Below, piece by piece: positions 14,322-18,262 of a DNA stretch of 20,311 nt; the stretch's first letter is position 1, and each line of letters opens with the position of its first letter. Below the pieces are notes generated by a model. The model had not been told where the DNA came from and did not search any database. It saw nothing but the letters and a program-made list of their open reading frames with translations. The stretch comes from Escherichia coli. GTDB lineage: Bacteria > Pseudomonadota > Gammaproteobacteria > Enterobacterales > Enterobacteriaceae. The DNA is taken from assembly GCF_003334335.1 (NCBI RefSeq), contig NZ_QOWQ01000053.1; one strand, given 5' to 3'. Made by a program: the position numbers and the translations under genes.

Positions 14322-15041
14322 TTACAGGCCAATCGCCTCTTTTAAGCTTTTCAGATAACGGCGGCTGACCGGCACGGTTAAGCCATTACGCAAAATCAAC
14401 TCGGCCTGGCCGTTATCTTCCAGACGAATCTCCTGTAAATGCGCGAGGTTAACCAGATACTGACGATGGCAGCGCAGTAGTGGTGTACGACTTTCCAGGG
14501 TACGTAATGTCAATTCGGTAAAGCCCTCTTTCCCTTCGTGGCTGGTAACGTAGACACCGCTCATCCGACTGCTGACAAATGCCACATCTTTCATTTGCAG
14601 CAAATAAATCCGACTATGCCCAGTACAAGGGATAAATTTCAGCGCCTGTTGATTTTCTGGTAACAGCGAAACATCCTGCTTGCTGCGTTCCTGCCGCAAA
14701 CGCGCCAGCGTTTTCTCCAGTCGCGCTTCATCAATTGGCTTCAGCAGATAATCAAAGGCGTGTTCTTCAAAGGCTTTAATGGCGTATTCGTCAAACGCGG
14801 TGAGAAAAACAATATACGGACGATGTTCCGGGTCGAGCATCCCCACCATTTCCAGACCACTGATGCGCGGCATCTGGATATCGAGAAACAGCACATCCGG
14901 GCGCAGTTTATGCACCGCGCCGATCCCTTCCACGGCGTTTGAACACTCACCAACGATTTCAATATCGCTCTGCTCCTGCAAAAATACGCGCAGGTTCTCC
15001 CGTGCTAACGGTTCATCATCGACAATTAAGACTTTAATCAT
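14322..15041 (-). CDS. btsR: LytTR-family response regulator BtsR (YehT), 239 aa
   Basis: N-terminal receiver domain ([17 protein letters not shown] with the conserved acidic pair, plus a later phospho-acceptor Asp context) and a C-terminal LytTR-type DNA-binding region. Its start ATG overlaps the btsS stop (ATGA), indicating translational coupling. Confidence 0.85.
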
Positions 15042-16723
15042 GCCTCGTCCCTCCATGGTAGTCGTAACGTTATTCGGGTGTAACTATCAGGCTCACAGGC
15101 GACGCTTATCCCATAGTCATCGCCAAACCGTTCACGTAAACGCTTATCCACCAGATTCATCCCCAGCCCACTGGCATTGGTTACCGGTTGATACAAACCG
15201 GCATTGTCTTCGATCTCCAGCATCAAATGTTGCCCCTCACGTCGGGCGCTGATTGCCACTCGCCCTGTATCCAGCAGTTGTGATGTCCCATGTTTAATGG
15301 CGTTTTCCACTATCGGTTGCAGGGTAAACGCGGGCAATTGCTGCTGGGATAATTCTTGCGGAATAGCAATGTTGACCTGCAACCGCGACTGGAAGCGCGC
15401 CTTTTCAATTTGCAGATAAGCGTTCACATGTTCAATTTCGTCGGCGAGAGTAACAAACTCCGAAGGCCGCTTTAAGTTTTTGCGGAAAAAAGTGGAAAGA
15501 TACTGCACCAGCTGGCTGGCCTGTTCGCTGTCGCGACGGATCACCGCTTTAATGGTGTTAAGCGCATTAAACAAAAAATGGGGGTTCACCTGGGCGTGAA
15601 GCAGTTTGATCTCTGACTGGGTGAGCATCGCTTTTTGCCGCTCATATTGCCCGGCGAGGATCTGCGCCGAAAGCAGTTGCGCAATCCCCTCGCCCAGCGT
15701 GCGGTTGATTGAACTGAATAAACGGTTTTTGGCTTCATACAATTTGATGGTGCCCATCACCCGCTGATTTTCACCACGCAACGGAATTACCAGCGTCGAC
15801 CCCAGTTTGCATTGCGGATGCAAAGAGCAACGATAAGGTACTTCGTTGCCATCAGCGTAGACCACTTCACCGGTTTCAATCGCTTTTAAGGTGTAAGTCG
15901 AAGATATCGGTTTGCCGGGTAAATGGTGGTCGTCACCAATTCCGGTAAAGGCCAGCAATTTCTCTCGATCGGTAATCGCGACTGCACCAATATCCAGCTC
16001 CTGATACAGCACCTGTGCCACTTTCATGCTGTTCACTTCGTTAAACCCCTGGCGCAAAATGCCTTCCGTCGAGGCAGCCACTTTCAGCGCAGTGGCAGAA
16101 AAAGCCGAAGTGTATTTTTCAAACATCGCGCGTTTATCGAGCAATATACGCATAAACAGCGCCGCGCCGACGGTATTGGTGACCATCATTGGCGCAGCAA
16201 TATTACTCACCAGACGCACCGCATCTTCATAAGGTCGGGCGATCGCCAGGATGATCAACATTTGCACCATTTCAGCGACGAACGTGACGGCACCGGCGGT
16301 AATGGGGTTAAAGACTTTATCAGTGCGCCCGCGACGGATCAGGATGCTGTGTACCAGGCCGCCGAGCAATCCTTCAACGATGGTCGAGATCATGCAACTT
16401 AGCGCGGTCATGCCCCCCATCGAATATCGATGTAACCCGCCGGTCAGGCCAACCAGCCCACCGACGACCGGACCGCCGAGTAAGCCGCCCATTACCGCGC
16501 CTATCGCACGGGTATTGGCAATAGAATCGTCAATGTGCAACCCAAACCAGGTGCCCATGATGCAGAAGATGGAAAAGACGATGTAGCAGAGAAATTTATG
16601 CGGCAGACGAACCGTGACCTGCATTAACGGTATGAATAATGGCGTTTTACTCATTAACCATGCAATGACTAAAAAAACGCACATCTGCTGAAGCAGCAGC
16701 AACACCAGATTAAAATCGTACAT
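15038..16723 (-). CDS. btsS: LytS-type sensor histidine kinase BtsS (YehU), 561 aa
   Basis: N-terminal multi-pass hydrophobic region with glycine-rich helices, a central GAF-like region, and a C-terminal His-kinase/HATPase region ([14 protein letters not shown], then G-rich ATP-lid motifs). Start chosen at MYDFNL (16723); the GTG 5 codons upstream is an alternative. Confidence 0.85.
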
Positions 16724-16944
16724 ACCCGCAAACCACACTTCCCTTTAAAACGCGTAACATACATTGCCTGCGTTTAACTTTCTTTGAACTCTTGCAGAAA
16801 AATGAGAATTCGTGAGTACGATCACTCAAAATCGCCTGGCAAAAATAAAATCACCCTATAAATGCACAAAAAACGGGCAAAACTACCTGGTTCGCAAAAC
16901 TGCGTCTAAAGTTAAACCGGGACCTCGCGAGCAAGGGTGAGACG
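16724..16944. promoter_or_regulatory. Divergent intergenic control region between btsS (minus) and mlrA (plus)
   Basis: 221-bp AT-rich non-coding gap between two divergently oriented starts. AGGGTGAG RBS precedes the mlrA ATG. No specific promoter hexamers are asserted. Confidence 0.5.
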
Positions 16945-17013
16945 ATGGCGCTTTACACAATTGGTGAAGTGGCGTTGCTTTGTGATATTAACCCTGTCAC
17001 GTTACGCGCGTGA
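16945..17013 (+). pseudogene. mlrA: 5' remnant of mlrA (yehV): first 22 codons, then a premature stop created at an insertion junction
   Basis: Encodes MALYTIGEVALLCDINPVTLRA, the start of a MerR-type HTH, then TGA at 17011-17013. Where a MerR recognition helix should continue (W-x-RRYGLL), the downstream sequence is unrelated. Confidence 0.8.
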
Positions 17014-17177
17014 CGCAACATTTTTAAAAATCGACGAAGATCGTCCAGGAGCGCCGTTTTTCAAGGGTTGGATAGATGATTCGTTTACCATGTCGACGAA
17101 CTTCGACGAATTTCGCCGATAAAAAGTGTCCCATACATGCCCCATTGATGCCCCATAAACAATATCAGGAATTGACA

Positions 17178-17222
17178 CTGGTTATCCATACAGACAAAAA
17201 TAACACCTGTACATAACCACAG
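17178..17222 (+). promoter_or_regulatory. Two LexA-box-like palindromes (SOS operators) upstream of the dinI homolog, with an adjacent consensus -35
   Basis: CTGG-N8-ACAG at 17178-17193 and a perfect CTGT-N8-ACAG at 17207-17222. TTGACA at 17172-17177 abuts the first box. AGGAGG RBS at 17227-17232. Confidence 0.6.
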
Positions 17223-17237
17223 TTACAGGAGGGTGTT

Positions 17238-17486
17238 ATGCGTGTTGAGATCTGTATCGCTAAAGAAAAAATCAGCAAAATGCCAAAAGGTTCTGTTTCT
17301 GCCCTGCAGCAAGAAATGCTTCGACGTGTCAGTAAACGTTATGACGATGTGGACGTGATTGTCAGAGCCGCCAACAATGACAGTCTCACCATTTTAAGAG
17401 CTGTAGATAAAGAATCCGCGCACGAATTTGTTCAGGAAACACTGCAGGAAGCCTGGGAAACCGCTGACGACTGGTTTATTCGGTAA
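17238..17486 (+). CDS. DinI-family protein (82 aa), prophage-encoded homolog of the SOS protein DinI
   Basis: [10 protein letters not shown]...[10 protein letters not shown]...[17 protein letters not shown] parallels E. coli DinI as I recall it (MRIEVTIAK...AANNLSVIG...QETWESADDWFVSE). Strong RBS and LexA-like boxes upstream. Confidence 0.8.
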
Positions 17487-17497
17487 ATCTTCTTTAC

Positions 17498-17526
17498 GGG
17501 GAGTTAACTTACTCCCCATTTTTTAT
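17498..17526. terminator. Rho-independent terminator after the dinI homolog (possibly bidirectional)
   Basis: GGGGAGT, loop TAACTT, ACTCCCC, followed by ATTTTTTATT. On the minus strand the same hairpin immediately follows the stop of the small ORF at 17523. Confidence 0.7.
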
Positions 17527-17654
17527 TGCATGATAATTGCAGCAACGGCACAGAGTGTCACCACACCACCCAGCCACACAAACAGCATGAAGCACATTGC
17601 TCCCGCTGTATAACGTTTTCTCCCGTACATACGGCATTTGTCTTTATTCATCAT
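17523..17654 (-). CDS. Candidate small tail-anchored membrane protein (43 aa)
   Basis: MMNKDKCRMYGRKRYTAGAMCFMLFVWLGGVVTLCAVAAIIMQ: basic N-terminus then a single ~23-residue hydrophobic segment. AGGGG lies a few nt upstream of the ATG. The stop is followed directly by the hairpin at 17498-17517. No homology is asserted. Confidence 0.3.
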   Translation of the reverse strand: MMNKDKCRMYGRKRYTAGAMCFMLFVWLGGVVTLCAVAAIIMQ

Positions 17655-17700
17655 CTGCCCCTGAATCACATGAAGACGCTGCAGGTCCGGTAACACTGAA

Positions 17701-18174
17701 TCACTCCGCACACGCAAGATGTTTCACGCTCACACCATACAGCCCGTTTTTCGCCATTCCCGTATACAGAAAGGTATTCACCGTCTTCGTGTGAATGCCC
17801 ATTTCACTGGCAAGGCGACAGGGTCTCGACTGGCGGTAGACGTAGCCAAACATCACCACCATCTCTGACATCGTCAGCGGACGGGCAACGCTGTTATACG
17901 TCCATACACCATTGCGTATGGCATCACTTATCTGCTCACCATCACGGAGTGATTCCGCACCCAGTTGCAGAAAATGCCGTCCCTGGAACATGCAGCGCAT
18001 CAGTCTGCCCAGCAACGTATCACAGATTATCAGCCAGGATTCGTCAAAGTCCGGGATATAACGGCGGTTCTCCGGCAGGAAAAACTCCCTCGCCAGTATC
18101 ACACTGTGTTCCTTCAGTAACGCCTGCAGACCATACTCCAGATAGCGATTCCTGGTAGCCAGAATCACCTTCAT
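17701..18174 (-). CDS. LuxR/GerE-type HTH transcriptional regulator (157 aa) with an atypical N-terminal domain
   Basis: C-terminal segment LTMSEMVVMF...RLASEMGIHTKTVNTFLYTGMAKNGL fits the LuxR-family HTH pattern (compare ...EIA..LGIS.KTV..H..NI..KLG). The N-terminus (MKVILATRN) is receiver-like but lacks the acidic pocket. Start chosen at the ATG with an AGGAAGG RBS. Confidence 0.6.
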   Translation of the reverse strand: MKVILATRNRYLEYGLQALLKEHSVILAREFFLPENRRYIPDFDESWLIICDTLLGRLMRCMFQGRHFLQLGAESLRDGEQISDAIRNGVWTYNSVARPLTMSEMVVMFGYVYRQSRPCRLASEMGIHTKTVNTFLYTGMAKNGLYGVSVKHLACAE

Positions 18175-18262
18175 CGCAGCACCTTCCTGTTTTTTATGCC
18201 CCATGAAAAACGGCAGACCAGAGTCCTGCGCCTGCCGTCATGCTTCATGTCACTGTCAGCAA

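Follow-up and report, generated by a model that had tools for sequence, protein, structure and literature searches.

Proteins of fewer than 50 residues that cross the membrane once and are encoded at the end of, or beside, a regulated operon include MgtR, MgrB, SafA, AcrZ, MgtS and PmrR. MgtR, a protein of 30 residues, is the product of the last gene of mgtCBR, and in both MgtR and AcrZ the helix itself is functional. Commensal strains of Escherichia coli, and Shiga-toxin-producing strains negative for the locus of enterocyte effacement, owe immunoglobulin binding, serum resistance and chain-like adherence to the Eib and EibG adhesins, and the control of the expression of these adhesins is poorly understood. 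In the prophages P-EibA, P-EibC and P-EibD of strain ECOR-9, a small open reading frame (ORF), deposited in 2000 as ORF-60A, ORF-60C or ORF-60D (GenBank AF151091, AF151674 and AF151675), occupies the slot after orf-156, which itself follows eib, and before a hairpin. Here we analyze the member of this family that lies near the end of a prophage in a 20,311-nucleotide stretch of E. coli DNA (contig NZ_QOWQ01000053.1; hereafter the window), where a small ORF follows an adhesin gene and a regulator gene. Comparative sequence evidence indicates that this ORF is a real, strongly conserved gene, and its product has the shape of a tail-anchored membrane peptide.

What is the evidence that the ORF is a gene? 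It lies on the minus strand, with an ATG at 17654-17652, a second ATG at 17651-17649 and a TAA stop at 17525-17523, and translation from the first ATG gives the 43-residue product MMNKDKCRMYGRKRYTAGAMCFMLFVWLGGVVTLCAVAAIIMQ. ORF length alone is uninformative, as there are 52 ORFs of at least 20 codons within this 3 kb, and the first-pass annotation had considered that the ORF could equally be a chance frame in the regulator's 3' untranslated region (UTR). It is conservation, not length, that leads us to judge otherwise. The comparison set comprised 37 loci with an intact core, which represent 15 distinct core nucleotide sequences. The reading frame is intact in all 37, and start, Shine-Dalgarno (SD) element and stop are conserved with it; this frame conservation in related prophages was the check that the first-pass annotation had looked to. 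Pairwise Nei-Gojobori estimates over a 33-codon core give a ratio of nonsynonymous to synonymous substitution (dN/dS) of 0.05-0.25, with dS of about 1-2 or saturated, and the variable sites at codon positions 1, 2 and 3 number 13, 13 and 28 of 30, respectively. In the stretch Y-T-x-G-A-M-C-F-M-L-F-V-W-L-G-G-V nearly all degenerate codons change synonymously with almost no residue changes. A chance ORF, or an untranslated piece of the regulator 3' UTR, would be in keeping with the frequency of short ORFs in this region and with translation being a prediction from sequence. However, purifying selection of this strength, the third-position bias and the retention of start, SD element and stop across lineages whose synonymous sites are saturated effectively refute it.

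The features of the gene and its immediate borders are as follows.

17523-17651, minus strand: conserved coding sequence of a predicted small membrane protein, 42 residues plus stop, read from the second ATG; assigned from the shared start, dN/dS and phrog_9340.
17652-17654, minus strand: upstream in-frame ATG giving a 43-residue form, a possible alternative or extra start in this variant only; the ATG is present in the window and P-EibD groups.
17658-17662, minus strand: SD-like AGGGG, with an anti-SD duplex energy of -5.7 kcal/mol.
17655-17700, minus strand: non-coding spacer from the regulator gene to the peptide gene, translated as an N-terminal extension (57-64 residue forms) in public annotations; its frame is not conserved.
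17498-17517, no strand assigned: GC-rich hairpin, a canonical dinI terminator and the 3' boundary of the cassette; a 7-bp stem followed by a T-run on the plus strand.

Two ATG codons stand in tandem in the window, and the Met at the second (17651) is the sole start common to all variants. The first ATG is absent in the L018, L022 and L024 groups of related loci; in L048 the spacer carries a 1-nt indel and AGA stands in place of the first ATG. An in-frame stop lies two codons before the shared ATG in one group, in-frame stops occur in the spacer of the L018 and L022 groups, and L022 and L023 differ by a stop. Likewise, a 3-nt indel and many replacements set the spacer of P-EibD apart from that of the window, and in L027 the regulator stop lies only 5 nt from the peptide ATG. 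We therefore reject the N-terminally extended forms of the public records (57, 60, 62, 64 and 74 residues), because the upstream frame is not conserved. A purine-rich SD-like element is present in every variant at the same place, 5-9 nt before the shared ATG (-3.8 to -7.4 kcal/mol); in the window, AGGGG is spaced 3 nt from the first ATG and 6 nt from the second. Judged by these sequence comparisons, the family-wide protein is 39-43 residues long, and in the window it starts at 17651 (42 residues), with 17654 as a possible extra start. The 43-residue ORF of the first-pass annotation thus agrees exactly with the PHROG 9340 profile, while the conserved start shortens it by one residue, to 17523-17651.

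The gene has been recorded before, in part, and the label 'unannotated' does not hold for the sequence at hand. Phage PhiR5_1 (PV340545) matches the region with 100% identity and E. coli SCU-104 with 99.5%, and in each a 57-residue hypothetical protein is annotated from a GTG at 17696 (RefSeq WP_021565261.1). The ORF-60A, ORF-60C and ORF-60D products belong to the same family, with 74% identity over a 42-43 residue core; in their records, by contrast, translation begins at an ATG that overlaps the stop of orf-156, which adds 17-18 N-terminal codons that are not conserved family-wide. P-EibE carries the peptide gene without annotation, and most 41-residue forms in complete RefSeq genomes have no annotated feature. 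Profile comparison matches phrog_9340 with E = 7e-24, profile positions 1-43 of 43 corresponding to residues 22-64 of the longest ORF and so to the 43-residue ORF exactly; PHROG 9340 is a sequence cluster only, with no functional or structural information attached. The peptide has no usable match in Pfam, NCBIfam or PADLOC. When 1.84 billion representative proteins were searched by profile, the only matches outside its own family came down to one chance match in a repetitive 1215-residue protein. All 39 protein homologues are from E. coli. The family is found in 95 of 5426 complete E. coli genomes, with up to 7 copies per genome and 217 genomic copies in total, and in 13 phage records; no relative was found among 100,044 species, each represented by one genome, and no match in a plasmid collection. 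Since no relative occurs among the species representatives, the family is an E. coli accessory gene. The peptide gene is thus an uncharacterised member of the ORF-60 / PHROG 9340 family, a familiar kind of gene and not a new kind.

The basic N-terminus, the hydrophobic segment, the ribosome binding site, the hairpin and the convergence with dinI that the first-pass annotation had listed are all present in the sequence. The N-terminal 15 residues of the window peptide carry a net charge of +5 (+3 to +5 across the family), and hydropathy on the Kyte-Doolittle scale averages 2.1 over the last 27 residues. In the AlphaFold2 model a single unbroken helix spans residues 5-42 of 43, with pLDDT above 90 in the hydrophobic part. 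These features fit the positive-inside rule and predict a tail-anchored, N-in, C-out topology, in which a basic cytoplasmic N-terminus of about 15 residues precedes one C-terminal helix and nothing is exposed in the periplasm. A bacterial lipoprotein was considered and rejected; there is no lipobox of the form [LVI][ASTVI][GAS]C, and the invariant Cys is preceded by G-A-M, with no hydrophobic h-region before it.

Selection is concentrated in one part of this helix. The inner-leaflet half, GAMCFMLFVWLGGV, is almost invariant. In 26 distinct peptides, positions 18-30 in 42-residue numbering, AMCFMLFVWLGGV, are invariant or nearly so, the exceptions being one M-to-I change at position 22 and two G-to-A changes at position 29. 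Tyr14, Thr15 and Gly17 are nearly invariant, as are Ala37, Ala38 and Gln42, and position 16 alternates between Thr and Ala. The consensus of the selected segment is (K/R)(K/R)xYTxGAMCFMLFVWLGGV, comprising the juxtamembrane residues and the inner-leaflet half, and it is near-invariant on every face of the helix. The outer-leaflet half only stays hydrophobic, save for Ala37, Ala38 and the terminal Gln, and the cytoplasmic tail is variable but basic. We note that the N-terminal types MNKDKC, MNKERC and MNKDRD combine variously with the C-terminal types VVTLCAVAAIIMQ, VLALVATAAVVMQ, VVALFTAAAVLLQ and VVTLCVLAALITQ. Because these types reassort between cassettes, recently shared ancestry does not account for the constraint, which acts on the protein itself; the many combinations also place recombination breakpoints inside the invariant core, which acts as the right-hand junction of the cassette.

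With which genes does the peptide gene travel? Every intact copy for which upstream DNA was examined is the third gene of a co-directional cassette consisting of a YadA-anchor (Eib-like) adhesin gene, an ORF-156 homologue, the peptide gene and the hairpin. The cassette occurs at prophage tail-fibre ends, in islands flanked by insertion sequences (IS) and beside a gene for a serine protease autotransporter of the Enterobacteriaceae (SPATE). The gene order is kept across related loci in which identity drops to 67-70% for the regulator and to 39-73% for the adhesin. In the window, the members upstream of the peptide gene are the following.

18263-19336, minus strand: Eib-like trimeric autotransporter, a YadA-anchor protein of 357 residues and the first cassette gene; phrog_9547, E = 1.5e-150, and the NCBIfam YadA model.
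18213-18229, minus strand: intergenic hairpin resembling a terminator, with a T5 tail, after the adhesin gene and before the regulator gene; annotated as a stem_loop in GenBank AF151675.
17701-18174, minus strand: ORF-156-type regulator of 157 residues, with a predicted atypical receiver-like domain and a LuxR-type helix-turn-helix (HTH); phrog_6585, E = 9e-97.

All cassette variants (an alignment of 21) preserve the hairpin at 18213-18229 by compensatory changes in its stem, and the regulator ATG follows it after only about 25 nt. As the conserved terminator leaves no room for a promoter, the regulator and the peptide are most simply made by partial read-through, below the level of the adhesin. 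The regulator gene ends 46 nt upstream of the small ORF, the spacer between the two genes measures 5-67 nt among the loci, and a scan of 17100-19800 found no promoter-like or terminator-like site between them; the arrangement suggests that the peptide is most likely co-transcribed with the regulator. The hairpin at 17498-17517 begins 5 nt past the peptide stop codon, which its plus-strand T-run overlaps. Its U-run is on the opposite strand, with no U-tract on the peptide's own strand, and it halts convergent transcripts (dinI in the window) just short of the peptide gene. The window, P-EibD, L018 and O104:H4 variants all keep a hairpin at this position, and immediately beyond it their flanking sequences diverge.

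The only copy of the peptide gene found to lack the adhesin and the regulator is broken. It lies in the O104:H4 strain 2011C-3493 (NC_018658; L033, 3960-4124, minus strand) and has a 17-nt frameshifting deletion in the AMCFML codons. We take this to indicate that the peptide is an accessory of the cassette, apparently maintained only within it. Upstream of the remnant and its hairpin is the exclusion gene cor, and the site looks like the scar of a cassette replacement.

What might such a peptide do? We propose, at about an even chance, that it is a tail-anchored intramembrane modulator that binds a conserved inner-membrane partner. The 42-residue (possibly 43-residue) protein would insert in the inner membrane N-in, C-out, after being made at a low level on the regulator transcript by read-through of the post-adhesin terminator. 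The inner-leaflet half of its helix would then bind a conserved partner specifically within the membrane; since this half is near-invariant and the outer half is merely hydrophobic, specific intramembrane binding is the most likely mechanism. Inner-membrane helices are missing from the other two proteins of the cassette; the partner would accordingly be one of the core inner-membrane proteins of E. coli and/or, in an oligomer, further copies of the peptide. By such binding, the peptide may tune the signalling input of the cassette regulator, or a host membrane function that suits an adhesin-displaying lysogen. The polar N-terminus and the helix running to the C-terminus are shared with MgtR. 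In contrast to the small inner-membrane regulators named above, however, the peptide is borne by prophages or islands and is not part of the core genome, and it has no sequence similarity to them (its lack of a Pfam or NCBIfam match covers several such families). MgrB and SafA also act through periplasmic tails, whereas the peptide has no such tail.

Several observations weigh against this proposal. Invariance on all faces of the helix fits an oligomeric pore, or the recognition of an extended segment, better than a helix-helix contact along a single face. No candidate partner emerged from the analysis, and the profile search of 1.84 billion proteins recovered no host protein with a similar helix, hence no sign of mimicry. 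A lineage represented by L040-43 has an Eib-like gene and an ORF-156 homologue in a cassette cut off before the peptide, and solo ORF-156 homologues with neither peptide nor adhesin are found close to hpa, close to kps and towards the end of an O157 Stx1a phage; from these two sets of loci we conclude that the peptide is dispensable for both of its neighbors. Finally, a literature search, which did not cover the original 2000 paper, found no paper on the function of the peptide. Two papers on EibG and EibD do not mention genes downstream of eib, and a preprint on the Cla and Yal proteins is silent on their function.

A helix conserved on every side, as this one is, would also be consistent with a homo-oligomeric bundle, and hence with a membrane-active toxin, either of type I or a holin-like pore, that oligomerises, depolarises the inner membrane and is restrained by an RNA antitoxin or by a low rate of translation. 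As in the type I toxins Hok, Ldr, TisB, ShoB, Ibs, Zor and DinQ, the product is a small hydrophobic peptide often found on mobile elements, and its size and shape, with a basic end and a hydrophobic helix, are similar to those of ShoB-type toxins. The mRNA region also folds somewhat better than shuffled sequence (z = -2.9), largely owing to the terminal hairpin. In other respects the gene differs from those toxins. A simple scan of 17100-19800 found no promoter-like site for a transcript antisense to the ORF, and no Rfam family matched at E up to 1; the overlapping antisense RNA that the first-pass annotation had suggested looking for was therefore not detected, nor was an adjacent small RNA gene. 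Synonymous sites are saturated along the whole ORF, so that no overlapping conserved RNA is evident. The gene has an operonic position, with no leader, 5' UTR or promoter of its own: a co-directional gene ends 5-67 nt before its start, and its SD element is exposed (the minimum-free-energy fold does not clearly sequester it). Convergent transcripts are ended by the dinI terminator shortly before they reach the ORF, and a genome can hold up to 7 copies, which speaks against a harmful product. Likewise, a holin would be expected in a lysis cassette, whereas this gene lies at the tail-fibre/attachment end, between the regulator and dinI, and also in non-phage islands. A toxin is accordingly very doubtful, and the type I option raised in the first-pass annotation finds no support.

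The location of the cassette suggests another function, that of a superinfection exclusion or phage-host interface moron whose product binds an inner-membrane DNA-entry protein of the ManYZ or PtsG type and protects the lysogen independently of the adhesin and the regulator. This would be a special case of binding to a host membrane protein. The gene shares the lambdoid tail-fibre end with exclusion morons such as Cor and HK97 gp15; in the O104:H4 phage the same slot holds cor, just upstream of the peptide remnant. The helix is strongly conserved though the phage backbones differ, and genomes with several copies have one per prophage. However, the helix is equally conserved in the non-phage, IS-flanked islands, and the gene is never found without the adhesin-regulator pair except as the broken remnant. 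Cor is moreover a lipoprotein, in contrast to the peptide, which has no lipobox, is tied to the adhesin-regulator pair and occurs outside phages as well. PADLOC gave no match, a weak point, since that library does not target exclusion morons. We consider this function unlikely.

Could the peptide instead act directly on one of its two neighbors? If it were a membrane tether or anti-regulator, its basic tail would bind ORF-156 and hold it at the membrane, as anti-sigma factors do. The gene order, regulator and then small membrane protein, would suit such a role, with only 5 nt between the two genes in L027, and the N-terminal type of the peptide travels with the type of ORF-156. Yet the cytoplasmic part is only about 15 residues long and is the least conserved, the conserved part lies within the membrane, and ORF-156 homologues stand alone in several contexts, which together make tethering improbable. 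Still less probable, in our estimate, is a helper that acts at the inner membrane in the biogenesis or anchoring of Eib during export, in a role like that of SadB for SadA or TpgA for AtaA. Every intact copy does lie in a cassette with a YadA-anchor gene, and the C-terminal anchor of the adhesin is also highly conserved (96% identity over the last 28 residues in L014). With no periplasmic residues beyond the end of the helix, however, the peptide could not chaperone a periplasmic or outer-membrane intermediate, and the L040-43 lineage has an Eib-like gene without it. Cloned eib genes alone reportedly give immunoglobulin binding and chain formation.

The regulator that precedes the peptide gene gave nothing significant against Pfam, NCBIfam or PDB sequences. 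A profile search produced weak matches (E of about 0.1) that fall on the HTH of GerE and VqmA. Its AlphaFold2 model has a pLDDT of 85, and the top 45 Foldseek matches in the PDB are all NarL/FixJ-type regulators with a receiver and a LuxR-type HTH, or VqmA. They include EvgA and RcsB, the two best, as well as DesR, VraR, FixJ, LiaR and VpsT, with probabilities up to 0.99, E values of only about 1e-3 and TM scores of 0.3-0.5. ORF-156 is thus predicted by fold to be a NarL/FixJ-like regulator, which bears out the LuxR-type regulator that the first-pass annotation had placed upstream of the small ORF. It lacks the canonical phospho-acceptor pocket: T-R-N is found after beta-1 in place of D-D, and Asp52 is kept after beta-3. 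Given this non-canonical acid pocket, we propose that ORF-156 is an atypical and probably phosphorylation-independent regulator. Membership in the O157 PsrA/PsrB family was considered and rejected, because a review describes PsrA/PsrB as AraC/XylS-type. We note also that ORF-156 has the look of a family of E. coli regulators that moves horizontally and has so far gone unrecognised (L026, 2898-3440; L036-L039; L044-L047).

The structural matches of ORF-156 raise the idea that it and the peptide form a kinase-less signalling pair, in which the helix docks onto a host envelope sensor such as a histidine kinase or a component of the Rcs or Evg systems; these two are named as candidates because their regulators are the closest structural matches of ORF-156. 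We regard such a pair as distinctly unlikely. If it exists, it would couple Eib expression to the envelope or mechanical state of the cell and would represent a new family of prophage-borne intramembrane connectors. Expression of eibG responds to agitation, oxygen, pH and temperature, and the pair would explain the repression of EibG by agitation (PMC4352079).

The adhesin of the window is 39-73% identical to the Eib-like proteins of the related loci. Its SCU-104 homologue is annotated in RefSeq as a YadA C-terminal domain protein, and the identical PhiR5_1 protein as a putative adhesin/invasin. Its identity to EibD is only about 50% over the C-terminal 209 residues (149-357). At 357 residues it is short in comparison with the named Eib proteins, which range from 392 to 511 residues. 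Non-immunoglobulin-binding groups, Cla and Yal, have recently been proposed (bioRxiv 10.64898/2025.12.25.695649).

Two of the related contexts carry further genes. In L040-L043, positions 1-2015 have a plasmid-like context (CcdAB, PIN/MazE), with a gene for a 1439-residue YadA-type adhesin and then a BamE/OmpA-domain gene; this TpgA-like helper arrangement adjoins the second, Eib-like adhesin gene and the ORF-156 homologue, where the peptide is lacking. In the IS-flanked islands L029-L032, a gene encoding a 410-residue PAPS_reduct/DUF3440 protein lies about 4 kb downstream of the cassette. This is also the architecture of IbrA, from the IbrAB island, the known activator of eib in ECOR-9.

On the other side of the peptide gene, beyond the cassette, lies one further feature.

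17238-17486, plus strand: convergent dinI-like gene, context only and outside the cassette; NCBIfam PRK10597, phrog_189.

Neither the P-EibD-type contexts nor the islands have this gene downstream of the peptide. A promoter-like site is found at 17172-17201, and just downstream of it, at 17207-17222 on the plus strand, is a CTGT-N8-ACAG SOS box, CTGTACATAACCACAG; the dinI-like gene is therefore probably controlled by LexA. The window runs from E. coli chromosome (btsS/yehU, 15038-16738, minus strand) into a prophage inserted in mlrA/yehV, with the small ORF near the prophage's end, a place where such genes, as the first-pass annotation remarked, are often carried. The mlrA/yehV gene is truncated after 22 codons (MALYTIGEVALLCDINPVTLRA*), with the remnant at 16945-17013 on the plus strand. 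As the prophage is integrated in mlrA, the gene for the curli/csgD activator, the lysogen should be mlrA-defective.

Finally, what does the ORF-60 peptide add to the biology of the Eib adhesins? The finding reveals no new principle. It corrects the annotation of about 2% of complete E. coli genomes, in which public records are too long or missing, and the sharply defined functional segment, the inner-leaflet half of the helix, is a target for mutagenesis. It also shows that the adhesin travels as a fixed three-gene unit, together with a previously unrecognised regulator, predicted to be NarL-like, and a strongly constrained peptide of predicted membrane location. A regulatory role for the pair formed by the peptide and ORF-156, if true, would fill a gap in the control of eibG.

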